32,000 bases of DNA from Crocosphaera subtropica ATCC 51142 (GCF_000017845.1 NC_010546.1:4050001-4082000), one strand, 5' to 3'; counted from the first letter of the stretch, positions 1-28,375 are shown. Translations and numbers: made by a program. Notes: generated by a model from the sequence alone, not told the origin.

Positions 1-2053
1 TAATGAAATTTTCGTGTCCCTTTAAAGTTTGCTCACAAATACCTGTTTTAAGATGCCAAATTTTAATTTGATTATCCATTCCACCACTGGCAAAAATAGA
101 TTGATGAGGATGCAAACTGACCGATAAAACGCTTTGTGAGTGGCCTTGAAATTGTCTTAATTCTTGTCCAGTTGAAATTTCCCATAATTTAATAGTCGTG
201 TCTTCGCTACTACTCATTAAATAACAATTATCCTGACTAAATGATAAATCCCAAATATAGCTATTGTGACCATTTAAAGTCATTAAAGGGGTTAAATCGG
301 GAAAACACCAAAGACGAATCTTTCCCCCTGAATCTCCCGTGGCTAACAGTTGTCCATCATGACTAAATTTGAGTGAAAAAATACTGCCAAAAGTTTGTGT
401 AAATTGACAATGAATTAAACTCGCTTTGGTAAAGTTGACATTGTTTAAAATTCTTCCTTGTAGATGACCATGACAAATTGATAACCCAGAAAAATCATAG
501 TCACTTAAGTTAACCCCTAAGTATCGAGTTAAATTGAAAAAGTTGCCACCCCCATAATGATGAACTTGTTTCGGATATTGTTTAAGTTGTTTCAGAATTT
601 TATGACAATGTTGGCTCAAATAAGTTTGAGAGGTTAAACTCTGGGTTAATTTTTTCGCAATAGGTTCTAAAATCAGTCTTAATTGAGTTTGATGAAGATA
701 ATCTTTTACATTCGTAGGGGTTAAAGATAATTCTAAAAAGAGAGAAAAATTGAGGGAAATTAATTCAGTTGTTATGGTTTTAACTAAATGTTCGGTAACA
801 TATTCCATCACCACAGGCTGTAAAGTATAGGTATCTTGTTGATTTTCCAGCAGCGATCGCCATCTTAAAGATTCTAAAGCGTCTAAAATATGATTTGGCT
901 CAATCCAAGATGATAGTTGTTCAGTTAAGCTTTTGATCTTTGTCCATTCTCGATTAATGGCTAAGAGATAGATGATCTTTTTTTCTAAGTCTGATAACCG
1001 AGAAAACTGCTGATCAATCAACCGATGAATATTATTAAAAGCAAAAGTGTTTTGAGCTAAAAATTGTTGAATTTTCCCCTCAAATAAATCTTGGATAGAT
1101 GTTGCCAAAATCTTCAAAGCTAACGGATTACAACGATAATGTTCTACTAATTTTTGTTTTTCTTGGCTAGATCCTTTTAACCCTTTCGCATTTAAAAGAG
1201 CCATTCCTGCTTCTAATGATCCTCTTAAATTTAAAGAACGAACTGATAATTTTACTCCTTCTAATTCAGCCACCTCTAATGGTTTTTCTCGTGAGGTCAG
1301 GAGGAGACAACTTTGATGGTTATTTTCTCCAATTAATCGTAAGAGTTTGCCATAATCTTCATAGTCAAGACGATATTGACCCACAACTGTCTTCGGTTCA
1401 AATAGGGTTTCAAAGTTATCTAAAATAATCAAACAACGTCGATTTTTTAACCAATATAGTAACCTTTTAAAACTTAGTTCATCATCTTGTTGATCAGACA
1501 GAAAAGGAATTAACTCGATTAATAACGTATTTAAGAATGGAGCATTTGTCAGCGATCGCCAAATCACTAAATCAAACTCAGACGTTATTTCTTTCGCTAA
1601 TTTGATGGCTAAAGTGCTTTTGCCAACCCCTCCTAAACCCAATAAAGAAATTAATTTACAATTATCTTTTAAAAGCCAAGTTTTTAGCTTATTTAATTCT
1701 GATATTCTGCCCCAAAAATACTCAGTTTCAATTGCTTCTCCCCAATCTTGATGTTTATTAAATTTTAGGGTTACTTGTTGATTTAAGTCTGTTTTAGATT
1801 TGCGCTCTAAAGCTGCTTTAAAATTAGTTTTACTAACCTTTTCTCCTAAAACTTGGCTGAGTTTTTTCCATAATTTAGGACCAATATCTCGCCTTAAATA
1901 ACTATCAGCATAACCTGCCTTATCAGCAATTTGGTCATAAGTTTCATCTTGCCATGCTCCTACTAAGATGATAGTTTCTACATCACTGAGATATTTTCCT
2001 GTTGTTTTATAAACTAAATTATTTACTAATAGCAAAGATTGTTCAAGAGTCAT
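1..2053 (-). CDS. STAND NTPase: LuxR/sigma70-region-4-like HTH + NB-ARC/NACHT-type P-loop + pentapeptide-like linker + WD40 repeats; the C-terminus runs off the left window edge
   Basis: Reverse-strand ATG at 2053-2051. My translation begins MTLEQSLLLVNNLVYKTTGKYLSDVETIILVGAWQDETYDQIADKAGYADSYLRRDIGPKLWKKLSQVLGEKVSKTN. Walker A GLGGVGKSTLA, Walker B-like LIILDNFE, LLLTSREKP and CNPLALKI (GxP-like) motifs. WD40 units such as GHSQSVLSVSLHP...NQIKIW, and GHENFI at position 1. I spot-translated both ends (about 2053-1560 and 500-1) plus part of the middle. Continuity of the rest is inferred from the absence of any listed minus-strand ORF here (ORFs without an in-window stop appear to be omitted from the track). 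Confidence 0.8.
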   Translation of the reverse strand, partial: MTLEQSLLLVNNLVYKTTGKYLSDVETIILVGAWQDETYDQIADKAGYADSYLRRDIGPKLWKKLSQVLGEKVSKTNFKAALERKSKTDLNQQVTLKFNKHQDWGEAIETEYFWGRISELNKLKTWLLKDNCKLISLLGLGGVGKSTLAIKLAKEITSEFDLVIWRSLTNAPFLNTLLIELIPFLSDQQDDELSFKRLLYWLKNRRCLIILDNFETLFEPKTVVGQYRLDYEDYGKLLRLIGENNHQSCLLLTSREKPLEVAELEGVKLSVRSLNLRGSLEAGMALLNAKGLKGSSQEKQKLVEHYRCNPLALKILATSIQDLFEGKIQQFLAQNTFAFNNIHRLIDQQFSRLSDLEKKIIYLLAINREWTKIKSLTEQLSSWIEPNHILDALESLRWRSLLENQQDTYTLQPVVMEYVTEHLVKTITTELISLNFSLFLELSLTPTNVKDYLHQTQLRLILEPIAKKLTQSLTSQTYLSQHCHKILKQLKQYPKQVHHYGGGNFFNLTRYLGVNLSDYDFSGLSICHGHLQGRILNNVNFTKASLIHCQFTQTFGSIFSLKFSHDGQLLATGDSGGKIRLWCFPDLTPLMTLNGHNSYIWDLSFSQDNCYLMSSSEDTTIKLWEISTGQELRQFQGHSQSVLSVSLHPHQSIFASGGMDNQIKIWHLKTGICEQTLKGHENFI

Positions 2054-2267
2054 AGTTAATTTGGGTTTAAGTAGAGAAAGAAAAACATAAGTCTTAGACT
2101 AAATTTTCAACTTAACTGTAAAGACATGGGCAATTGCTAATAGTCCAAGATTTCCAGCGTTTTCATTATTTTTAACATAGATCAATATCTTAATGGAAAC
2201 CATAACTATTTTAAGATTCATGTTCCTCATATTCGTTTTGGGGATAAATATTCTTACCTCTTCAAAA

Positions 2268-2314
2268 AAGTTAAGTCCTTAAGGTAAGAAAAGTTAAGTA
2301 TCAGCAAAGTTAAG
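2268..2314 (+). promoter_or_regulatory. Three exact direct copies of the octamer AAGTTAAG (2268-2275, 2291-2298, 2307-2314) in the divergent intergenic region; candidate operator/activator boxes
   Basis: Read directly: aaaAAGTTAAGtccttaaggtaagaaAAGTTAAGtatcagcaAAGTTAAGctt. Inverted near-copies: CTTAACTG at 2111-2118, CCTAACTT at 2333-2340, and exact CTTAACTT at 5073-5080 in the second promoter region. Confidence 0.35.
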
Positions 2315-2330
2315 CTTAAACGCTTCTATC

Positions 2331-2376
2331 TCCCTAACTTTTCTGTATCGACTCTCAGTTTAATTCAGTTTATAAA
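2331..2376 (+). promoter_or_regulatory. Putative promoter A: conserved box TCCCTAACTTTTCTGTA + -35-like TCGACT (2348-2353) + 17-nt spacer + -10 TATAAA (2371-2376)
   Basis: Paralogous to 5071-5116 at an ungapped offset of exactly 2740 nt (core 23-mer 20/23 identical). Lies 38 nt upstream of the ATG at 2414. GGAGAC Shine-Dalgarno at 2402-2407. Confidence 0.4.
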
Positions 2377-2413
2377 AGTAATATCAACCCATCAGATTAA
2401 CGGAGACAAAATC

Positions 2414-2674
2414 ATGAAACTTATTTATAGAGGGATTCAATACGATAACACCAACACACCTAACATCGTGAACCAAGAGAAACAACTGACAGCTAAATAT
2501 CGAGGAATCAGCTATCAAGTTTCTTTAAATTCCCAAAAAGCTAAACAAGTCAATCATATTTTGAAGTATCGAGGGGTTAACTATAACAGTCAACCTAACA
2601 AAAATGTTCTTCAAACCACTCCTTATTCTACTGGTATCGACGGTGATCATATTCCTAATCATTTAATCGCATAA
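2414..2674 (+). CDS. DUF4278-family small protein with three YRG(I/V)xY repeats
   Basis: 86 aa: MKLIYRGIQYD...AKYRGISYQ...LKYRGVNYN. The MKLxYRGxxY N-terminus is the hallmark of the cyanobacterial DUF4278 family. Good SD sequence. Confidence 0.7.
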   Translation: MKLIYRGIQYDNTNTPNIVNQEKQLTAKYRGISYQVSLNSQKAKQVNHILKYRGVNYNSQPNKNVLQTTPYSTGIDGDHIPNHLIA

Positions 2675-2788
2675 GACCATTGATACCTAATATCTAGAGA
2701 CTGAGGAAAGAAATTTCTAATCCCTATTGTTATCTTTAATTTCTATCTCAATCCCTTGCTAATTTACACACACATTTTGGACAAAATC

Positions 2789-3715
2789 ATGACTATTGCT
2801 AAACCTTCTCCGACGATTGAACTAAAAACATCAGAGAGAATTAACCTAAAACTTTTACCCTGGATAATCTCAACTCTACTCAAAAAAACTGACAGTAATT
2901 ATCAACCTACTCTCATCGGTCATATTCTCTTAGCCTTAGTTTTATCCTGTACCTTCTTTGGCAGTTATGCCCTACATATTCATCGTTCTGCTGCTCGTTT
3001 AAATCAATGGTTAAATCCTTCAACAACCGTGGAAACAGATGTTACGCTTCAACGCCTCGAAAGTAAGATGGCAGAAGCACAACAACAACTCAAAAAAACA
3101 ACAAAACCTGAAACAAAACATAACATCGAACGTACTTTATCTGAGCAAGAAAGACTGAAAACGCAATTATATGAAATCGATAAAAGACTGGAACGTTATC
3201 GATACATGATGGTCTTTTTTTACAGTCGTAATTATGCGTCAATTACTTTAACAACCTTTTCTGCAATCATTGCTGGTTCTTGTGTTTTATTAATTAGTCG
3301 TGCAGGTTGGCAACGCATTAATAATCTTGTCATTCATCTCTGTATTTTTTCTTCAGGTTGCGTCATTTTATTTTCTGACATCTCAGGTATCTTTCAATAT
3401 GACCTAAATTACCAAAATGTCGCTAATATTTATGGCGAACACATGACGCTAAAAAATGCCATTCGTAGCTTTTTTGCCACTGGGGGATTTCTTCAAGAAA
3501 ATCCAAATACCGGAGAAACCCAATACATCGAATTACAAGACACAAACCGCTTTATTTATTACGTCGATCAACAACTAACCAAGTTTAATCAAATTCCCTT
3601 AGCTATCGATAATTCTACCCTAGAACGAGTTGTTAATTCTGCCAATTTAGGAGATCAATTGGGAGATAGAATTTCCTTCGATGTCCCCGAATCTGCTAAG
3701 GAAATACCTCAATAA
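2789..3715 (+). CDS. 3-TM membrane protein with a central coiled coil; the TM hairpin plus following helix is loosely SLATT/DUF4231-like (candidate pore/holin-like effector)
   Basis: I prefer the ATG at 2789 (MTIAKPSP...) over the TTG at 2756. Hydrophobic helices: LIGHILLALVLSCTFFGSYAL, ASITLTTFSAIIAGSCVLLI, LVIHLCIFSSGCVILFSDISGI. Charged heptad-like stretch: LQRLESKMAEAQQQLKK...QERLKTQLYEIDKRLERYRY. The family assignment is pattern-based only. Confidence 0.6.
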   Translation: MTIAKPSPTIELKTSERINLKLLPWIISTLLKKTDSNYQPTLIGHILLALVLSCTFFGSYALHIHRSAARLNQWLNPSTTVETDVTLQRLESKMAEAQQQLKKTTKPETKHNIERTLSEQERLKTQLYEIDKRLERYRYMMVFFYSRNYASITLTTFSAIIAGSCVLLISRAGWQRINNLVIHLCIFSSGCVILFSDISGIFQYDLNYQNVANIYGEHMTLKNAIRSFFATGGFLQENPNTGETQYIELQDTNRFIYYVDQQLTKFNQIPLAIDNSTLERVVNSANLGDQLGDRISFDVPESAKEIPQ

Positions 3716-3780: not shown

Positions 3781-4998
3781 ATGAACACCATCAAAGCAAC
3801 CACTCAAACTTTCCTCAAAAAAGTAGTAACCCAAGCCTCTCAACTCTCAGATAACCAAAAAGTACAAGTCCCCCAAGGAAAAACCTACCAAATTATTAAT
3901 TACGCTGAAGCAGAACAAGGTCACTACCAAGTAGAATTAAACTATGGTGCCGGAACCTGGTACCTTTGGTCAGGTCACTGGCAACTCCCCTGGGAAGATA
4001 ACCAAGAGGAAGCAGAAATTACAAAGACAGACTTCTTTTCCCCTGAAAATCTTAAAGCGATTATGCCAAATGCTACTTCGGCCGACATCGCTACCTATGT
4101 TAACCCCCTTAATAAAGTCTTGTCTGACTTTGATTTAGCCACAACCACTAGGGCTTGCGCCTTCATTGCTCAAATTGCTCATGAAAGCGGTTCTTTACGC
4201 TATAAAGAAGAAATCGCATCAGGGGCAGCCTATGAAGGACGACGGGACTTAGGCAACACTCAACCAGGAGACGGTAAACGCTTCAAGGGCAGAGGTTTGA
4301 TCCAACTCACCGGCAGGGCAAACTATCGTCAATGTGGACAGGCGTTAAATTTACCCCTAGAACAAAATCCCGAATTAGTTGTCAAAGATCCTTACACCAA
4401 TGCTGCGGTGGCCGGTTGGTATTGGCAAAGTCGTAACATTAACGCAGCAGCTGATGCTGGAGACTTTCAACGGGTGACACGGTTGATCAACGGCGGATTG
4501 AATGGATATAGCGATCGCCTTCAATATTGGGAGAGAGCTAAGAAAGTGTTAGGACAACAAGACCATCAAAAAAGCAATGTTCCTAGCTCTTGGAAAGCAG
4601 TGAACTGGAATGATGTCAATGCCAAGGTGTCCAACTATTTTACCGTCCGAGAAGTGATCAACGGCGATCGCCGTCGCATTCCCACTGATGACACCATTAA
4701 GCAAAACATTTTTACCTTAGCCCAAGAATTAGATAAGGTGCGAGAAGCCTGGGGATCTCCCATTATTGTCACCTCTTGGTATCGTCCCCCTGCCATTAAC
4801 CGTGCTATTGGTGGAGCGACCCGTTCTCAACATATTTTAGGAAAAGCTGCCGATATTCGACCGGTTCAGGGCAATTTATATCAATTCCAAGATTGGTTAG
4901 ATAAGGTAGCCTGGAAAGATAAAGCGTTGGGCTATGGGGCGAAAAAAGGCTTTGTCCATGTTGATCTGCGTCCTGGAAAGATTCGCTGGAATTATTAA
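3781..4998 (+). CDS. Two-catalytic-domain cell-wall hydrolase: N-terminal SH3-like module + GH19/COG3179 chitinase-lysozyme-like domain + peptidase M15A (zinc D-Ala-D-Ala carboxypeptidase-like) domain; no signal peptide
   Basis: GH19-type block: AFIAQIAHESGSLRYKEE...FKGRGLIQLTGRANY...AAVAGWYW...INGGLNG. M15-type zinc motif: SQHILGKAADI ... GFVHVDLRP. The N-terminus MNTIKATTQTFLKKVVTQASQLSDNQK is hydrophilic. Confidence 0.85.
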   Translation: MNTIKATTQTFLKKVVTQASQLSDNQKVQVPQGKTYQIINYAEAEQGHYQVELNYGAGTWYLWSGHWQLPWEDNQEEAEITKTDFFSPENLKAIMPNATSADIATYVNPLNKVLSDFDLATTTRACAFIAQIAHESGSLRYKEEIASGAAYEGRRDLGNTQPGDGKRFKGRGLIQLTGRANYRQCGQALNLPLEQNPELVVKDPYTNAAVAGWYWQSRNINAAADAGDFQRVTRLINGGLNGYSDRLQYWERAKKVLGQQDHQKSNVPSSWKAVNWNDVNAKVSNYFTVREVINGDRRRIPTDDTIKQNIFTLAQELDKVREAWGSPIIVTSWYRPPAINRAIGGATRSQHILGKAADIRPVQGNLYQFQDWLDKVAWKDKALGYGAKKGFVHVDLRPGKIRWNY

Positions 4999-5021
4999 AT
5001 CTTAGATGAGTTGACTAAACG

Positions 5022-5052
5022 GGGTTGATGAGTATCATCAACCCTAATTTTT
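5022..5052 (+). terminator. Rho-independent terminator after the hydrolase gene
   Basis: GGGTTGATGA (5022-5031), loop GTA, TCATCAACCC (5035-5044), then TAATTTTT. Perfect 10-bp stem. Confidence 0.6.
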
Positions 5053-5070
5053 GTCTTAACCGAAAATAAC

Positions 5071-5116
5071 TCCTTAACTTTTCTACATCGACTTTTCCAG
5101 AAAATCAGCCTATAAG
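5071..5116 (+). promoter_or_regulatory. Putative promoter B: conserved box TCCTTAACTTTTCTACA + -35-like TCGACT (5088-5093) + 17-nt spacer + -10 TATAAG (5111-5116)
   Basis: Paralog of 2331-2376. Followed by a 5' UTR with the hairpin GATCTCGAAGAGATC (5133-5147) and GGAGAC SD (5154-5159) before the ATG at 5170. Confidence 0.4.
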
Positions 5117-5169
5117 TATTACTAAAGAGGGGGATCTCGAAGAGATCACAATTTGGAGACAAGCTTCTG

Positions 5170-8100
5170 ATGTATGACTCAACTTCATCATATCAATACC
5201 AGGTGGGAGGAGGGCTACCCGCCAATGCCCCAAGTTATGTGGTTCGTAGTGCCGACGAAGAACTCTATCAAGCCCTAAAAGCAGGAACCTTCTGTTATGT
5301 TCTCAACTCTCGTCAAGTCGGTAAATCCAGTTTACGGGTAAGAGTAACCCAACGCTTACACCAAGAAGGCTTTGCCTGTGTTACTGTCGATTTATCGGGT
5401 ATTGGCAATCGCAACAGTAGCCCCGATCAATGGTATGCCGATATTATTATGCGTTTAGTTCGGGGTTTAGGACTGACAAAACAGATTCCTGTGCGTCGTT
5501 GGCTCGAAGAGCGGATGTTTCTCTCTCCTATCAATCGTCTAGCAGAAATATTACAAGAAGAACTCCCCAAAGCGATCGCCAAACCCATTGTTATCTTCTT
5601 CGATGAAATTGATAGTACCCTCAGTCTGCCTTTCAATACAGACGACTTTTTTGCGCTCTTACGGTCCTGTGACGAATACGATCATCTTACCTTTACCCTG
5701 TTAGGGGTAGCTACTCCCTCCGATCTCATTGCCGACAAAACCCGAACCCCTTTTAATATTGGTCGTGCCATTCAACTCCAAGGGTTTCAAGAAGCTGAAG
5801 TCAAACCTTTAATCTTAGGACTCACCCCAAAAGTGAAACAACCCCAATGGGTGATGAAAGAAATTTTAAGCTGGACAGGAGGACAACCCTTTCTGACCCA
5901 AAAACTCTGTCAATTAATGATTTCTCAAGGAGACAAGCTCCTAGATACCTCCCATGTGGCCAAGATTGTCCAAACTCAGATGATTGACAATTGGATCGCC
6001 CAAGACGAACCTCCCCATTTTCGCACCATCCGCGATCGCCTTCTTTGTCATGAACAACGGGCCAGTCGACTGTTAGGACTCTATCAACAAGTGTTAGAGG
6101 AAGGGCAACTGTTAGCCGATGATAGCCCCGAACAAATCGAACTCTTACTCTCAGGGTTAGTGGTGAAACAAGCCGGTTATTTACGCCCTTATAACCCCAT
6201 TTATCAAGCTATTTTCAACCTAGACTGGGTAGAAAAGCAATTGCAAACATTGCGTCCCTACGGAGAACGTCTTAACGCTTGGGTTCATTCTAACTACCAA
6301 GATCCCTCCCACCTCTTGCGAGGACAAGCCCTCATCGATGCCCAAACTTGGGCAAAAGGGAAAAACCTCAGTAACCAAGATTATCGCTTTTTAGCTGCCA
6401 GTCAAGAACAGGAAAAACAGGAAGTCCAAGGGACTCTCTTAATCACAGAACAAGCTAACCATATCCTAACCAAAGCTCAACAAAAAGCTAATCGCACCAT
6501 TCGTCGTGGTTTCTTGGGTTTATCCGTCGTCTCTGTTGTGGCCCTTTCCCTGTTAGGGATGGCGGGTTGGTTGACCCAGAAAACCGTCCGACAACAACAA
6601 CAGGTAGCTTTAGGAGAAGTCAAAGCTATGACCTTAGCTTCAGAAGCCTCCTTTGAAGCCCATCAAACCCTAAACGCATTATTAGAAAGCCTCAAAGCTG
6701 GTAACAAACTGACGGAGATAGGATGGCATCGAGCAGACACCGATCTCAAAATTCGTGTAGAAAAAGCCCTACATCAGTCTCTCTACCGAATACAAGAACA
6801 AAACCGCTTCAATGGCCATCAAGATATGGTCACACGGGTTAAATACAGTCCCGACGGACAAACCTTAGCCACAGCCAGTTGGGATAAAACCTTAAAAATT
6901 TGGGCTAAAGACGGAACCCTACTCCAAACCCTCAACGGCCATCAAGACGCAGTGTGGAGCGTTAATTATAGTCCCGATGGTCAATTCCTCGTCAGTGCCA
7001 GCCGAGATAAAACCGCTAAACTCTGGCGTGTGGCCGATGGAACCAAAGTGGCCACGCTTGATTTTAATGATGATTGGGTGGCTTGTGTGGGGTTTAGTCC
7101 CGATAGTCAACGGGTGGCTACCATGGGATGGAATGGGGTCGTCAAACTCTGGAATTTACAAGGGAAAGAGATCCTCTCCTTTAAAACCCACAATGCTCCT
7201 GTGATGGCTATTCACTACAGTCCGAAAGCAGAGTTAATTGCTACAGCGAGTCGGGATGGAACAGCCAAAATTTGGAATCTTCAAGGGGAAGCAGTGGCTA
7301 CCCTCCGAGGTCATCAAGATTGGGTCATGTATGTGAATTTTAGCCCCGATGGTCAAACGTTAGTGACAGGGAGTAAGGATAAAACCGCTAAACTTTGGGA
7401 TCTTCAGGGACGAGAATTAGCTACCTTAGAAGGTCATACAGAGACAGTAGGCAGTGGGGCGTTTAGTCGAGACGGTCAAACCATTGCCACAGCGGGTTTT
7501 GATAAAACAGTCCGTCTTTGGAATCGTCAAGGTAAACTCTTGAATGTTCTTCGTGGGCATACAGATGCGGTTTGGGGGGTGAATTTTAATGAAACGGGAC
7601 AAATTTTGGCCAGTAGTGGGGAGGATGGAACTGTACGCCTTTGGAATCTAAATCATGCCTTGAAATCAGCCCAAAGCCTCACTATACTCCCAGAAGAGGA
7701 TGCTGCTAAAGCCGATATTAGTCTCAGTCCCGATGGTCAATTATTAGGGACAGCCGGACGCTATACTATGGGGAAACTTTGGGATTTACAGGGGAATATG
7801 GTTGCTAAATTGAGCAGTCATGGGGATAACCTCAGAAGTATCGCATTTAGTCCCGATGGTCAATTATTAGTCACCGCAAGTCGGGATAAAACGGCTAAAC
7901 TGTGGAATCGACAGGGAGACGCTCTGGCTACCCTCCGTGGCCACCAAGGGGATGTGAGGGATGCCAGTTTTAGCCCTGATGGTCAATGGATTGTAACAGC
8001 CAGTTGGGATAAAACCGCTAAACTGTGGAATCGACAGGGACAAGTGTTATTCACCCTACAAGGTCATGAAGAGAGTATCAGACAGGTGGAGTTTAGCCCC

Positions 8101-8694
8101 AATGGTCAAATCATTGCCACTGCTAGTGATGATGGTACAGTTCAACTGTGGACTCCCCAAGGAAAGCCCTTAAACACCTTACGAGGGCATCAAGAAGGGG
8201 TGTTAGGGGTCGCCTTTAGCCCCGATAGTCAACGGGTAGTCACCGCCAGTAAAGATTCCACCCTCAAACTCTGGACGACCAAGGGGGAGGCGATCGCCAC
8301 GTTACGGGGCCATGAAACGGCAGTTAATTCTGTCAGTTTTAGTCCGGATGGTCAATTTATTGTCAGTGGGGGGAATGATGGTACGATTCGCCTCTGGACC
8401 AAAGACGGAACCCTCCTGCAAACCCTAGGGGGTCACGAGTCTGGGGTAAGAAAAGTCTTGTTTAGGCCCAATGGTCAGCAACTGATTTCTTCTGATGTAA
8501 CGGGGACTGTGATGCAGTGGGACTTAACCTTAGAGGCTAACCCTGAAACGTTACTAAAACAAGGATGTGAATGGGTTAAGGATTACTTGCAAACCAATCT
8601 CTATGTAAGCGAAACTGACAAACAGGTGTGCGCGCCGCAAAGCGGATCTCTTCGAGATCGCTTTCTTACTGCTAAAATATCCTTAACTCTCTAG
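5170..8694 (+). CDS. AAA-like (Pfam AAA_35-type) P-loop NTPase + single hydrophobic TM-like helix + 14 WD40 repeats (two 7-bladed propellers)
   Basis: Walker [11 protein letters not shown], Walker [19 protein letters not shown] and [14 protein letters not shown] blocks. Hydrophobic helix [22 protein letters not shown] (nt 6508-6573). Fourteen units of type GHQDxVxxVxFSPDGQxLATASxDKTAKLW. Confidence 0.9.
6814..8520 (+). repeat. Intragenic tandem array of about 123-nt WD40-coding units with near-identical DNA segments between some units
   Basis: GGGATAAAAC(G/C)GCTAAACTGTGGAATCGACAGGGA occurs at 7883 and 8006, exactly 123 nt apart with one mismatch. GATAAAACCGCTAAACT also recurs near 7008 and 7377. 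TTTAGTCCCGATGGTCAATTATTAG recurs near 7727 and 7847. Confidence 0.8.
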
Positions 8695-8710: not shown

Positions 8711-10102
8711 ATGGCAGGTCGTCGTCAAGAACCCCTTATTTCTTTTGAAAATGCTTTAACCATTGCTGATCAAGCGGTTTTTTCCAAGACAGGAAGACAT
8801 CTCAAAAATATTGAAGTTGCTGTCTTACAAGGCTCTTTATTGGGTCATAATTACGACCAAATTGCTGATGAAGTGGGTTATGCACCAGAATATATCAAAC
8901 ACGATGTTGGTCCAAAATTGTGGAAACTTCTCTCGGCCAGCTTTGGAGAAAAGGTGAGCAAAACCAATGTGATGGCGGTCTTAGCGCAACAAACCCATCG
9001 CCATAACACCACTTCTGTGTTGCCTGGAGACAATGGCTTTAAACCTTCTGCCTTAGAACCCCCAGTCGGACCGGTTTCCCTTCACTCTCCCCTTTACCTA
9101 CAACGGCCTCCCATTGAATCTCGTTGCTACGACGAGATTTTACGTCCCGGTTCTTTGATCCGCATCAAAGCCCCCCGTCAAATGGGAAAAACGTCTCTGA
9201 TGCTGCGAATCTTAGACCATGCTAAACAACAATTAGAGCATGATGGGGTGATGACTGTAGCCTTGAGTTTACAACGGGCTGATAAAGCTGCATTTTCAGA
9301 TTTAGATCGCTTCTTACGTTGGTTTTGTACGGTCATTACCCGCAAACTCAAACTCCCCTATCGGGTTGAAGACTACTGGAGTGATACGTTTGGCAGCAAA
9401 AGCAACTGTACCGCCTATTTTGAAGATTGCATTCTATCAGAAATTGACGGGCCTTTAGTGTTGGCCTTAGACCAAGTGGATGAAGTCTTTCTACATCCAG
9501 AAGTGGCGGATGATTTTTTCACTTTACTCCGTTCCTGGTACGAAGAAGCTTCCTATGGAGACAGTGGCAACCCCCTTTGGCAAAACCTTCGTCTAATCAT
9601 TGTTCATTCTACAGAAGTTTATATTCCCCTTGATATTAATAAATCTCCCTTTAATGTGGGGTTAGCAATCGAATTACAACCGTTTACCTTTGACCAGGTT
9701 TCTATCTTGGCTAAATCTTATGCTCTAAACCTCTCAAACGCTGATCTTCAGCAACTTATGGACTTCATTGCTGGCCACCCTTATTTAGTACAACAAGCCC
9801 TGTATCATCTGGCTACCCAAAACCTTACCCTAGAAGGGTTGATCAACACAGGGGCAACCGATGCGAGTATTTATCATCATCATCTTCATCGATTATTACA
9901 AAATTTGCGAGAACATCATATTTTATCAACCACTTATCAACAAGTTTTAGAAGCATCAGCGCCGATTGAATTGGAACAATTACCAGCGTTTAAATTACAT
10001 AGTATGGGTTTGGTTGTTTTACAAGGAAATCAAGTAATCTCAAGTTGTCAATTATATAGGCAATATTTTTTAACAAAAAACATTGTCTGTGATGAAGGAT
10101 AA
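8711..10102 (+). CDS. LuxR/sigma70-r4-like HTH module + AAA-like (AAA_35-type) P-loop NTPase
   Basis: N-terminus LKNIEVAVLQGSLLGHNYDQIADEVGYAPEYIKHDVGPKLWKLLSASFGEKVSKTN is paralogous to the N-terminus of the 1-2053 gene. Walker A APRQMGKTSL, Walker B LALDQVDEV, DDFFTLLRS and SPFNVGLAIELQPF are paralogous to the 5170 NTPase. Only 16 nt separate it from the upstream stop. Confidence 0.85.
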   Translation: MAGRRQEPLISFENALTIADQAVFSKTGRHLKNIEVAVLQGSLLGHNYDQIADEVGYAPEYIKHDVGPKLWKLLSASFGEKVSKTNVMAVLAQQTHRHNTTSVLPGDNGFKPSALEPPVGPVSLHSPLYLQRPPIESRCYDEILRPGSLIRIKAPRQMGKTSLMLRILDHAKQQLEHDGVMTVALSLQRADKAAFSDLDRFLRWFCTVITRKLKLPYRVEDYWSDTFGSKSNCTAYFEDCILSEIDGPLVLALDQVDEVFLHPEVADDFFTLLRSWYEEASYGDSGNPLWQNLRLIIVHSTEVYIPLDINKSPFNVGLAIELQPFTFDQVSILAKSYALNLSNADLQQLMDFIAGHPYLVQQALYHLATQNLTLEGLINTGATDASIYHHHLHRLLQNLREHHILSTTYQQVLEASAPIELEQLPAFKLHSMGLVVLQGNQVISSCQLYRQYFLTKNIVCDEG

Positions 10103-24222: not shown

Positions 24223-24268
24223 GTTTAATTTTTTCCGCTAGATTCCTAACTCAATAACTGAAACTTTT

Positions 24269-24303
24269 TAGGTGGGCCATGCTCACCTAAATTTTATTTT
24301 TTT
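24269..24303 (+). terminator. Rho-independent terminator; its stem is a diverged copy of the GGTGGGC...GCCCACC hairpin family
   Basis: TAGGTGGGC, loop CAT, GCTCACCTA (one G-T wobble), followed by AATTTTATTTTTTT. Confidence 0.6.
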
Positions 24304-25970: not shown

Positions 25971-26055
25971 AGCGCACCGCAAAACAGATCTCTTTGCGAT
26001 CGTTTTATTTTTGTTGAGGATTGTATATCAGTTTTCAACAATTTTCAAACAGTAA

Positions 26056-26072
26056 GGTGGGCATTGCCCACC
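26056..26072. repeat. Palindromic hairpin GGTGGGCATTGCCCACC, copy 1 (identical copy at 28359-28375)
   Basis: 7-bp GC-rich stem with a 3-nt loop, read directly. It abuts the truncated higA-like fragment. Confidence 0.7.
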
Positions 26073-26086
26073 CTACTATTCATAGG

Positions 26087-26155
26087 AGTTTATTATAAAT
26101 ATCTTGGTTAATTATAAGAATCATAGTTTTAGATTAATCTCATTCAATTAAGTTA
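26087..26155 (-). pseudogene. Remnant of the 5' end plus upstream region of a higA-like gene (paralog of 27076-27144)
   Basis: Ungapped alignment to 27076-27144 gives 53/69 identities. Encodes MILIINQDIYNKLL-stop versus MALTINPDTYNQLLIK in the intact gene. Confidence 0.5.
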
Positions 26156-26226
26156 AAATAGATTTTAATTTTAAGTGATTACGTTCCAATTAACTTATTA
26201 TATTCTGCATGAGATCCAATCCAAAA

Positions 26227-26433
26227 TCATGATCTTCCTCCTTTCACTTCAATTCCTAATGCTCTGTAATTTCTTCCTGCTCTAACTGACCAATATTTAC
26301 CTACTTTCTTTAGATGTAGTGAAGGATGAGAAGGATCAATTTTCAGCAAATTGTAACACTGATCAGCAGTTTTTTGAACTTCTTTAGGTAAAGCGGAATA
26401 ACATTGCCAAAAGCGACGGGTTGTATAGTGCAT
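26227..26433 (-). CDS. RelE/ParE-superfamily-like type II toxin, apparently truncated by an in-frame TGA (the reading frame continues to 26179)
   Basis: MHYTTRRFWQCYSALPKEVQKTADQCYNLLKIDPSHPSLHLKKVGKYWSVRAGRNYRALGIEVKGGRS-TGA-FWIGSHAEYNKLIGT-TAA. Its start overlaps the stop of the upstream small acidic gene (26433). Confidence 0.55.
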   Translation of the reverse strand: MHYTTRRFWQCYSALPKEVQKTADQCYNLLKIDPSHPSLHLKKVGKYWSVRAGRNYRALGIEVKGGRS

Positions 26434-26642
26434 TAAATTTCTTTACACTCTCCTGCTTCATATTCTGCAATCGCTTCTGCTGCTAAATCATCTAGTTTTC
26501 CTTGTTTAATATCTTCTTCTAATTGTTGATCCCAGTTTTGATAATCAAGATCAGATAACCATTCAAGTAACTGTTGAACTTCATGGGATGGTAATTGTAA
26601 AATAGCTGATTCAATTTGATCTAGTGTTAGCATAATATGCAA
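26433..26642 (-). CDS. Putative antitoxin (small acidic protein) of the 26227-26433 toxin
   Basis: 69 aa, acidic, helical. 1-nt overlap with the toxin start. Typical type II TA gene order and size. Confidence 0.55.
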   Translation of the reverse strand: MHIMLTLDQIESAILQLPSHEVQQLLEWLSDLDYQNWDQQLEEDIKQGKLDDLAAEAIAEYEAGECKEI

Positions 26643-26714
26643 TTAGAAGTGTCTCCTTTACTAAAAGAGATTATAACTTAGAAGTCCTAAGTTTTGATCA
26701 ATGTTTGTAACTTT

Positions 26715-27113
26715 TTAGATAAAGAGTGCAGGAGAAACATGAAATATCTCAGCTAAAGTTTTAGCTTGAGACTTGCTGATAGAGCGTTTTCCATTAACCA
26801 CTTCTGAAACAACGCCTTTAGACCCTATTTTACCCACTAAATCAACTTGTTTCATGTTATGTTCCTCCATCAAATATTGTAAGATTTCATGGGGAGAAGC
26901 AGGTTTTGGTTGCTCTTGCTTTTCATCATATTCTTTAATTAAAGCAGAAATTAACTTAAGAATAGCTGTTTCTTCTTCACTTCTGTTTGTTTCCATCATT
27001 AATTCAATTAAAATATCACCATACTCTTGATATTCTGCTTCAGTTTCAATGACTTTGGGTTGAAATTTAATCAAAAGTTGGTTATAGGTATCTGGGTTGA
27101 TTGTTAGAGCCAT
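26715..27113 (-). CDS. HigA-like HTH (Xre-type) antitoxin/transcriptional regulator, orphan (no cognate HigB-like gene upstream)
   Basis: C-terminal HTH MKQVDLVGKIGSKGVVSEVVNGKRSISKSQAKTLAEIFHVSPALF with a helical N-terminal domain, as in COG5499-type antitoxins. Confidence 0.7.
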   Translation of the reverse strand: MALTINPDTYNQLLIKFQPKVIETEAEYQEYGDILIELMMETNRSEEETAILKLISALIKEYDEKQEQPKPASPHEILQYLMEEHNMKQVDLVGKIGSKGVVSEVVNGKRSISKSQAKTLAEIFHVSPALFI

Positions 27114-27148
27114 AGTTGTGAATTAACCTCATTCAATTTAGCTAGGAT

Positions 27149-27172
27149 AATGGGGGGAAACAGTCCCCCATT
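27149..27172. terminator. Hairpin AATGGGGG / CCCCCATT downstream of the PEP-CTERM gene
   Basis: 8-bp stem with an 8-nt loop. No clear U-run on the minus strand, so it is weak as a terminator. Confidence 0.3.
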
Positions 27173-28336: not shown

Positions 28337-28358
28337 AAGTAAATCAAGAATAAAATAG

Positions 28359-28375
28359 GGTGGGCATTGCCCACC
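28359..28375. repeat. Palindromic hairpin GGTGGGCATTGCCCACC, copy 2; probably also the thrS terminator
   Basis: Identical 17-mer to 26056-26072. Lies 8 nt past the thrS stop and is followed on the minus strand by TATTTTATT. Confidence 0.7.

Follow-up and report, generated by a model that had tools for sequence, protein, structure and literature searches.

A conserved and probably factor-dependent promoter element, linked to HTH-STAND genes, heads two gene units of Crocosphaera subtropica and recurs across cyanobacteria

We analysed 32,000 nt of the Crocosphaera subtropica (Cyanothece) ATCC 51142 chromosome (NC_010546.1:4050001-4082000; this whole stretch is called the window here), in which the locus cce_3920 to cce_3925 contains two plus-strand units headed by copies of one promoter/leader element. 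Copy 1 lies ahead of cce_3921-cce_3923 (unit 1) and copy 2 ahead of cce_3924-cce_3925 (unit 2). With moderate confidence, we read both copies as an island-specific, factor-dependent promoter of MalT-like architecture that is conserved across cyanobacteria. The comparative sequence data suggest that it probably defines an undescribed regulon, extending from Crocosphaera to Anabaena and controlled by neighbouring DNA-binding STAND ATPases with a helix-turn-helix (HTH) domain.

The two copies had been aligned by hand in a prediction made from the sequence alone. An ungapped comparison of 2314-2380 with 5054-5120 reproduced its 43 identities in 67 positions, as well as the 20 in 23 of the core (2331-2353 versus 5071-5093). 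In both copies a -35-like TCGACT (at 2348 and 5088) is followed, after a 17-nt spacer and in equal register, by TATAAA (2371) or TATAAG (5111). This similarity is not chance. A degenerate form of the core has two sites in the window, namely the two copies, whereas 100 shuffles gave no match. Between both intergenic regions, the best 23-mer match has 20 identities, compared with at most 18 in 300 shuffles. We found no further copy in the remaining 22 kb by nhmmer profile search, and no minus-strand copy for the divergent cce_3920, which was sought by profile search and by inspection of 2054-2320.

Two details of the original prediction had to be adjusted. Comparison with relatives defined conserved units of ~2328-2376 and ~5068-5116; the 5' 17 nt (2314-2330 versus 5054-5070) fall outside the conserved element. 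For copy 2, these outer 17 nt (5054-5070) are not kept in the close relative Cyanothece BG0011; its sequence upstream of the copy is unrelated, and the first 17 nt of the alignment are therefore not part of copy 2. A ribosome-binding region GGAGACAA is indeed present in both leaders, but at an offset of 2753 instead of 2740, and it is thus 13 nt out of register with the motif. In addition, copy 1 is accompanied by three upstream AAAGTTAAG boxes (2267, 2290 and 2306) that were absent from the earlier description. The features are as follows.

2267..2275, plus strand: distal box AAAGTTAAG, third from the promoter; the minus strand reads exactly CTTAACTTT, so that the box is inverted with respect to the proximal one; Cyanothece BG0011 retains this region
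2290..2298, plus strand: distal box AAAGTTAAG, second; identical in BG0011, and matching the -41 class of second boxes elsewhere
2306..2314, plus strand: distal box AAAGTTAAG, nearest; its AGTTAAG begins 27 nt ahead of the core TAAC, and in other genomes 26 of 47 instances have this box at -28/-29
2331..2353, plus strand: core block of copy 1, proximal box CCCTAACTTTT fused to the -35-like ATCGAC(T); nhmmer E 1.1e-8 against the profile from other genomes
2371..2376, plus strand: -10-like box TATAAA of copy 1; predicted transcription start ~2383
2402..2409, plus strand: GGAGACAA, ribosome-binding region of cce_3921
2414, plus strand: ATG start codon of the copy 1 unit
5021..5054, plus strand: intrinsic-terminator-like hairpin and T-run closing unit 1; an 11-pair stem, then AATTTTTGTC
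5071..5093, plus strand: core block of copy 2, TCCTTAACTTTTCTACATCGACT; nhmmer E 5.6e-9 against the profile from other genomes; no distal box
5111..5116, plus strand: -10-like box TATAAG of copy 2; predicted start ~5123
5155..5162, plus strand: GGAGACAA, ribosome-binding region of cce_3924
5170, plus strand: ATG start codon of the copy 2 unit

A consensus scan for promoters and terminators found the terminator at 5021-5045, and copy 2 (5068) begins 14 nt past the end of the terminator-like element (5054). This terminator directly before copy 2 makes the units separate, and places the start of unit 2 at or after the block, not upstream of it. In five other genomes, the promoters of the orthologous genes align with the core of copy 2. 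The unit 2 leader also contains a hairpin, GATCTC-GAA-GAGATC (window 5133-5147); in BG0011 (locus L131, ~6293-6305) it reads ATCTT-TAA-AAGAT, where the stem is kept with changed bases.

We scanned one genome per species (185,579 species genomes, 596 Gb) with the query TAACTTTTCTNNATCGAC and obtained at least 120 loci; by our estimate, chance alone should give a few hundred matches in this amount of DNA. Among the matches listed (at least 120 loci), about 45 are cyanobacterial, from Nostocales, Oscillatoriales, Leptolyngbya-like and other lineages. The consensus core positions are fixed by the exact search, and the support comes from the flanks, from degenerate copies and from protein-anchored loci; many instances are orthologous, so that the counts overstate their independence. 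Dozens of cyanobacterial genomes contain the core TCCYTAACTTTTCTRYATCGAC-N18-TATAA(A/G) together with conserved flanks. The flanks shared outside the query are AA.TCC on the 5' side of the core and, on the 3' side, N18 followed by TATAAA. Among the matches listed, the gap after ATCGAC is fixed at 18 nt in 38 of 47 instances, and 40-110 nt separate the core from a co-oriented start codon in most of them. The non-cyanobacterial matches listed are single and without common flanks, 56 of the 68 lie inside long open reading frames (ORFs), and they look like chance. A profile built from the flanked copies retrieved 17 more degenerate copies in the same loci, with the -35-like variants ATTGAC, ATGGAC and ATAGAC.

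Most copies are accompanied by one to three inverted AAAGTTAAG boxes, 17-63 nt further upstream (range over copies, 0-3). Besides the class at -28/-29, the inverted AGTTAAG box is found at -41 as a second box in 7 instances and at -20 in another 7 (of 47). The centre-to-centre distances of the distal-box TTAA are 17, 25-26 and 38-40 nt.

The original prediction had named a ubiquitous dispersed repeat with no positional relation to genes as a refuting outcome. We observed the opposite: among the matches listed, 44 of the 46 flanked copies are intergenic, copies cluster in islands of 10-40 kb, and the strongest matches in the six protein-anchored loci described below all point at gene starts. 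Five copies lie within 10 kb of one Nostocaceae genome (L046/L035, including a degenerate copy before a monooxygenase gene), one 59-kb Komarekiella contig has three motif blocks, and Calothrix PCC 7103 has two, which are 16 kb apart. The distribution is also unlike that of a miniature inverted-repeat transposable element, as the window has two copies in 32 kb, both promoter-proximal, and the copies checked face a downstream start codon. Viral contigs gave 78 exact matches, none with the cyanobacterial flanks, and hence no phage link.

The 8-kb blocks around these matches were too short for a linkage test, and this first sample had been selected by the motif itself. Therefore, we used a second sample of six loci fetched solely through orthologues of cce_3925. 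The motif was present in all six (Anabaena 7120, Hydrococcus, Leptolyngbya, Scytonema, Cyanothece BG0011 and C. chwakensis). Each of their nine strongest matches (one per promoter, E <= 7e-6) has the orientation of a called gene that starts at most 75 nt past the match. The Anabaena PCC 7120 island contains alr2800 (cce_3920), all2796 (cce_3925), asl2794 (DUF4278) and alr2791 (cce_3924), and two strong copies precede asl2794 and alr2791, orthologues of both window units. In BG0011 the DUF4278 cassette has moved and been inverted, and the motif is kept at both promoters. The cce_3924-type promoter of C. chwakensis keeps TCCTTAACTTTTCT and a -10-like box at the right distance and has lost ATCGAC.

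The motif is thus kept before the orthologues of both units in Anabaena PCC 7120, in BG0011 and in many other genomes despite rearrangement. This argues for the proposed promoter/operator box shared by both plus-strand units, and the comparative data also point, as far as sequence goes, to one regulon. Its core gene is cce_3924: orthologues with 57-65% identity stand downstream of the motif in 16 fetched loci among the matches listed.

The genes of the two units and their divergent neighbour are listed below.

2..2053, minus strand: cce_3920, 5' part, running off the window; STAND protein with HTH_VMAP-M9, NB-ARC and WD40 (Pfam NB-ARC, WD40)
2414..2674, plus strand: cce_3921, first gene of unit 1; DUF4278 small protein (Pfam DUF4278, E 5.8e-19)
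2756..3715, plus strand: cce_3922, unit 1; 319-residue protein
3781..4998, plus strand: cce_3923, last gene of unit 1; cell-wall hydrolase with GH19 and Peptidase_M15_3 (Pfam)
5170..8694, plus strand: cce_3924; AAA_35 NTPase with one predicted membrane helix (residues 448-466) and ~13 WD40 repeats
8711..10102, plus strand: cce_3925, unit 2; HTH_VMAP-M9 and AAA_35 (Pfam labels), 16 nt past cce_3924

We assigned cce_3925 to unit 2 because of this short distance from cce_3924. Proteins with an HTH module encoded in the same locus had been proposed as readers of the box, and our comparisons favour them as candidates: they carry HTH_VMAP-M9 with a LuxR/GerE-like predicted fold, and the motif accompanies the cce_3925 orthologue in every locus of the protein-anchored sample. 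HTH_VMAP-M9 is the precomputed Pfam label of the N-terminal modules of both cce_3925 and cce_3920, whose first 90 residues are homologous (38% identity); those of cce_3920 match a hidden Markov model (HMM) of the HTH domain with E 5.5e-37. Local Pfam and PDB sequence searches with the N-terminal domain gave no match. An AlphaFold2 model of the domain (predicted local distance difference test score 82) had LuxR/FixJ/NarL/GerE-type HTH domains as its best PDB matches in Foldseek. Both window proteins and their homologues share the almost invariant stretch Y-I/L-K-x-D-V-G-P-K-L-W-K-L-L-S, which in our reading parallels the recognition helix T-V-K-x-H-x-x-x-I-x-x-K-L of the LuxR-type family.

The Walker motifs are intact in both NTPase modules; those of cce_3925 are GKTS (Walker A) and LALDQVDE (Walker B). 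Thus cce_3925 and cce_3920 each combine a STAND NTPase with a putative DNA-binding HTH, as MalT does, although the fold statistics are weak. Orthologues of cce_3925 are 63-88% identical across cyanobacterial orders, which is unusual for fast-evolving defence genes; the Anabaena orthologue of cce_3920, alr2800, is 38% identical over 700 residues. Taken with the linkage, these properties make cce_3925 the best candidate for the factor that reads the motif, with cce_3920 as a possible second.

The AAA_35 label of cce_3924 comes from a precomputed Pfam table, and the 25 top domain matches displayed for this protein are to WD40/beta-propellers only. All eight cce_3924 orthologues checked have one hydrophobic segment between AAA_35 and WD40 (Kyte-Doolittle 19-mer values of 1.65-2.2), and a TIRRG precedes it, for instance in the Anabaena protein (L125 15617-19186) and six other orthologues. 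The HTH-STAND proteins have no such segment. This segment of the cce_3924 orthologues may be a membrane anchor that places the propellers on the opposite side. Its conservation makes it plausible, on simple hydropathy, that cce_3924 is a membrane-anchored sensor partner.

The promoter itself consists of a proximal CCYTAACTTTT fused to a weak -35-like ATCGAC, an 18-nt gap and TATAA(A/C/G), with a semi-conserved AAWTYC just upstream of the -10-like box. A 22-bp conserved block is centred ~41 nt upstream of the predicted start. Sigma-70 promoters have a -35 near TTGACA and a -10 TAnnnT, 17 +/- 1 nt apart. Here the spacer is 17 nt and TCGACT matches at 4 of 6 positions (ATTGAC in some copies), and TATAA(A/C/G) has no T at position 6. 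A sigma-70 consensus scan called neither window copy, owing to the A or G at this position.

This organisation resembles that of the MalT promoters of the E. coli maltose regulon. There, as here, several short asymmetric boxes are used, of which one abuts a weak -35 and the others lie upstream in opposite orientation; in our case these are the proximal CCYTAACTTT and the zero to three distal inverted AAAGTTAAG boxes, window copy 2 having the proximal box only. The candidate regulator is likewise a STAND-type NTPase with a LuxR/GerE-like HTH. By analogy, this architecture implies cooperative binding by a multimerised NTPase. The systems differ in that the HTH (HTH_VMAP-M9) is N-terminal here and C-terminal in MalT, the NTPase belongs to AAA_35 or NB-ARC, the boxes are unrelated in sequence, and the putative sensor is a WD40 propeller that resides in part on a separate membrane-anchored paralogue. 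The position of the 22-bp block, which overlaps the -35 ~41 nt before the predicted start, also recalls class II activation by LuxR at a lux box near -42.5, and the candidate binder has a LuxR-like fold. Unlike the lux box, the block is not palindromic; its symmetry partner is a separate box 17-40 nt upstream, and the start is a predicted one.

The sequence data show that the element is conserved, where it lies and how it is oriented, and that it is linked in the genome to the HTH-STAND gene. From these features we infer start sites, a binder, a sign of regulation and a signal, which together would give the following circuit. Copy 1 would drive cce_3921-3923 (DUF4278 protein, 319-residue protein and GH19/M15 wall hydrolase), and copy 2 cce_3924-3925 (membrane-anchored AAA_35-WD40 and HTH-AAA_35). 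Once its NTPase is switched on and multimerised, cce_3925, and possibly cce_3920, would bind the TTAA-centred boxes through the LuxR-like HTH_VMAP-M9. The bound HTH-STAND protein would then bring RNA polymerase to a promoter that is poor by itself, in the manner of MalT at the mal promoters. The sensing partner may be cce_3924, with its WD40 propellers beyond the membrane helix. As cce_3925 sits in unit 2, the Crocosphaera circuit would feed back on itself.

Several observations weigh against this reading. The Foldseek E-values are weak (0.4-3, with template-modelling scores of ~0.6 on 65-residue targets), and the spacings of the distal boxes show no clean helical phasing. In an HMM search for the HTH domain, an HTH-AAA_35 gene was found in 2 of ~45 8-kb motif blocks; the linkage is therefore on the scale of the island, not gene by gene. 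Position 6 of the -10-like box (window 2376 and 5116) is A in 32, C in 9, G in 5 and T in none of 46 instances, and no other register rescues the TAnnnT rule. Finally, the transcription-unit table of Nostoc 7120 gives alr2790-alr2791 as one unit from gTSS_3391021f, upstream of alr2790, and lists no unit in 3395423-3408902, which covers the DUF4278 cassette (asl2794 to all2792) and the HTH-STAND genes (PMC10287535). The only start mapped at the motif in this table is antisense, aTSS_3391700r, with a 181-nt unit (PMC10287535).

We converted the Nostoc coordinates with an offset of 2753 obtained from two anchors. This antisense start falls at L125 19242-19254 (NC_003272 ~3391700-3391712), 7 nt after TATATT, the reverse complement of the motif -10 stretch TATAAATATA before alr2791, and its transcript would run back through both boxes. 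The motif promoters thus appear silent or weak under laboratory conditions. Such apparent silence fits a factor-dependent promoter, whose starts here are predicted ones.

The absence of T at position 6 keeps an alternative sigma factor as a real rival, although we consider it unlikely. Here, a dedicated holoenzyme would read the -35 region and TATAA(A/C/G), the AAAGTTAAG boxes would play an accessory part, and no HTH-STAND protein would bind DNA at this site. The base composition at position 6, the semi-conserved AAWTYC just 5' of the box and conservation over the entire interval from -53 to -7 fit this idea, as do extracytoplasmic function (ECF) sigma/anti-sigma gene pairs in two fetched loci (L010 and L128). 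However, the motif has no sigma gene as a regular neighbour, whereas it is linked to the HTH-AAA_35 gene in all six protein-anchored loci. The C. chwakensis promoter, with its proximal box kept and its -35-like part diverged, is better explained by a separate binding protein. That the same 9-mer recurs in inverted distal copies also points to a repeated protein site. Judged by their known consensus, ECF-type promoters do not have the 10 nt that separate AAC and CGA here, and we rejected the ECF-type reading on this spacing.

Less probable still is an operator, at which an HTH-STAND protein or another factor bound over the -35 region represses an intrinsically active promoter until a signal releases it. 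The overlap of the block with the -35-like element would suit repression, and so would the lack of a transcription unit for the Anabaena DUF4278 cassette under laboratory conditions. Against this, the -35-like (4/6) and -10-like elements look too weak for a strong unaided promoter. Moreover, the STAND regulators with a LuxR-type HTH that have been studied, MalT and the LAL proteins, are activators.

We give very little weight to an element acting at the RNA level, in which the inverted boxes pair as a hairpin within a leader, small RNA or antisense transcript. It is true that the 9-nt distal and proximal boxes are inverted repeats, and the Nostoc antisense unit starts in the -10-like stretch and crosses the motif. 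However, both regions fold no better than shuffles (z +0.5 and +1.2; leaders, +0.35 and -0.58), and Rfam gave no match at gathering score anywhere in the window. Glutamine riboswitches are known to precede some DUF4278 genes (PMC6212724). Copy 2 and the WD40 promoters of the Crocosphaera clade have no distal box, arm spacing (9 to ~20 nt) and box number vary, and the terminator directly 5' of copy 2 leaves no room for an upstream start. Chance similarity, a dispersed repeat or a mobile-element remnant without regulatory role deserves next to no credence: AT-rich intergenic DNA yields many short matches and the 9-mer box alone is not over-represented in the window (24 matches versus 21 expected), but the shuffles gave none for the core, flanks, orientation and start-codon distance are conserved across orders, the other 22 kb hold no copy and the viral matches have no flanks, so that the comparative data have already refuted it.

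The factor-dependent promoter that we favour can also be compared with other known systems. The LAL and SARP-STAND activators of actinomycete clusters (PikD and AfsR type) are large ATP-binding HTH regulators that switch on several units of one island, and in Nostocales, as well as on a Nostoc plasmid, the motif correspondingly heads genes for nonribosomal peptide synthetase (NRPS), ABC exporter and monooxygenase. The actinomycete activators belong to another phylum and differ in domain order and NTPase clade, and the core here (AAA_35-WD40 and DUF4278) is conserved across orders instead of being cluster-specific. By analogy, the system would work like the MalT and LAL regulons, although its domain order, NTPase clade, sensor type and box sequence are different.

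The cyanobacterial Pho box (SphR/PhoB) consists of two or three direct repeats of PyTTAAPyPy(T/A) with 11-bp phasing. The 8-mer CTTAACTT fits this unit consensus, but the repeats here are inverted, their spacings are 17-63 nt and the genes are unrelated to phosphate uptake. We rejected a Pho box on the inverted orientation and the wrong spacing; 11 nt downstream, the sequence reads TGTATCGA.

The vWA-MoxR/VMAP STAND 'conflict systems' (PMC7159879) share with this locus the HTH family, by Pfam name, STAND NTPases with WD40 arrays, and a variable effector-like cargo of hydrolases, nucleases, RTX proteins and lipase. In contrast to them, the window has no vWA or MoxR genes, and the core proteins are 57-88% identical across orders, unusual for arms-race genes. 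We found no cis-element or transcriptional output described in the text of Kaur, Burroughs, Iyer and Aravind 2020 (PMC7159879). A defence system listed in PADLOC was rejected, since no model of a described system matched: the WD40 repeats resembled one candidate model only, and the other four proteins had no match.

More speculatively, the locus may encode a split device similar to the nucleotide-binding leucine-rich-repeat receptors, with a transcriptional output. We put this forward only tentatively. The membrane-anchored AAA_35-WD40 protein (cce_3924/alr2791) would sense an envelope or extracellular cue and co-assemble through AAA_35 with the soluble HTH-AAA_35 protein (cce_3925/all2796). 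The complex would bind the TTAA boxes and switch on effector cassettes (wall hydrolase, nuclease, RTX/lipase and NRPS products) from promoters with a non-canonical -10, as a conserved 'immune or cell-fate regulon'.

The genes that recur downstream of the motif are cce_3924 orthologues, DUF4278 genes, a 543-residue ABC exporter, a flavin monooxygenase (FMO), NRPS and lipase. Others are a gene for a 59-residue lipoprotein followed by a giant Laminin_G_3 protein (~2,400 residues), RTX and CSLREA/beta-helix proteins, DUF1830 and DUF4915. In Anabaena, Hydrococcus, Scytonema, BG0011 and several Nostocales loci, DUF4278 genes lie 3' of the motif. A plasmid of Nostoc UHCC 0870 has the motif ahead of both a cce_3924 orthologue and a divergent NRPS operon.

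Unit 1 had been called a lysis-type cassette. This suits the Crocosphaera-type version, which with its GH19-M15 homologue is also present in BG0011 and Dactylococcopsis (L028), but the cargo differs in other genomes. In Nostocales, the last gene of the DUF4278 cassette belongs to the PD-(D/E)XK nuclease family by its NCBI name (L125 14409-15602, all2792; L047 4937-6130); a nuclease in place of the Crocosphaera wall hydrolase indicates that the cargo is exchangeable. For cce_3922 we found no Pfam, NCBIfam or PADLOC match and no homologue in the other islands, and an NCBIfam scan of the window proteins was uninformative.

Some further features of the islands were observed. The all2801-type 'spondin domain' gene is preceded by a weaker, conserved pair of divergent motif-like sites, both in Anabaena (L125 2428-2497) and on a Nostoc plasmid (L211 4870-4939). 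In several genomes a MinD/ParA-like ATPase gene (All2797 in Anabaena) stands either immediately before the HTH-AAA_35 gene or at another place in the island (L125 7701-9942, L130 7240-9941, L129 3822-4583, L075 6917-7729 and L111 7708-7998), often preceded by a PNPOx-like gene and a gene for ~136 residues. In the literature searched, we found nothing on the Anabaena island genes beyond a table giving All2797 as a MinD paralogue, and nothing on cce_3920-3925 or on the motif sequence.

The remaining 22 kb of the window hold housekeeping and signalling genes (FtsY, AccA, FolE, ThrRS, a CHASE kinase and a GGDEF regulator). A perfect GC-rich palindrome of the GGTGGGCATTGCCCACC type occurs there three times just past gene ends (24268-24287, 26053-26072 and 28356-28375), probably as terminator-like or repetitive-extragenic-palindrome-like elements. 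A 74-nt repeat with 76% identity (26087-26160 versus 27076-27149) adjoins toxin-antitoxin-like ORFs on the minus strand (26227-27113), which comprise a pair of 68 and 69 residues and a 132-residue protein with an XRE/HigA-like C-terminus.

Very many STAND NTPases of cyanobacteria carry arrays of WD40 or TPR, and an output is known for almost none of them. The motif gives one conserved STAND NTPase set a concrete, testable read-out, with a defined promoter, a candidate DNA-binding domain (HTH_VMAP-M9) and a target set present in both Anabaena PCC 7120 and Cyanothece 51142, which are genetically tractable. If our reading is true, the HTH_VMAP-M9 family would make STAND proteins transcription factors, and a new regulon would cover cell-wall hydrolases, toxins and natural-product genes. 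It would also offer synthetic biology a tight promoter, probably silent by default, and would raise the question of how a promoter without the T at position 6 of its -10 is recognised.

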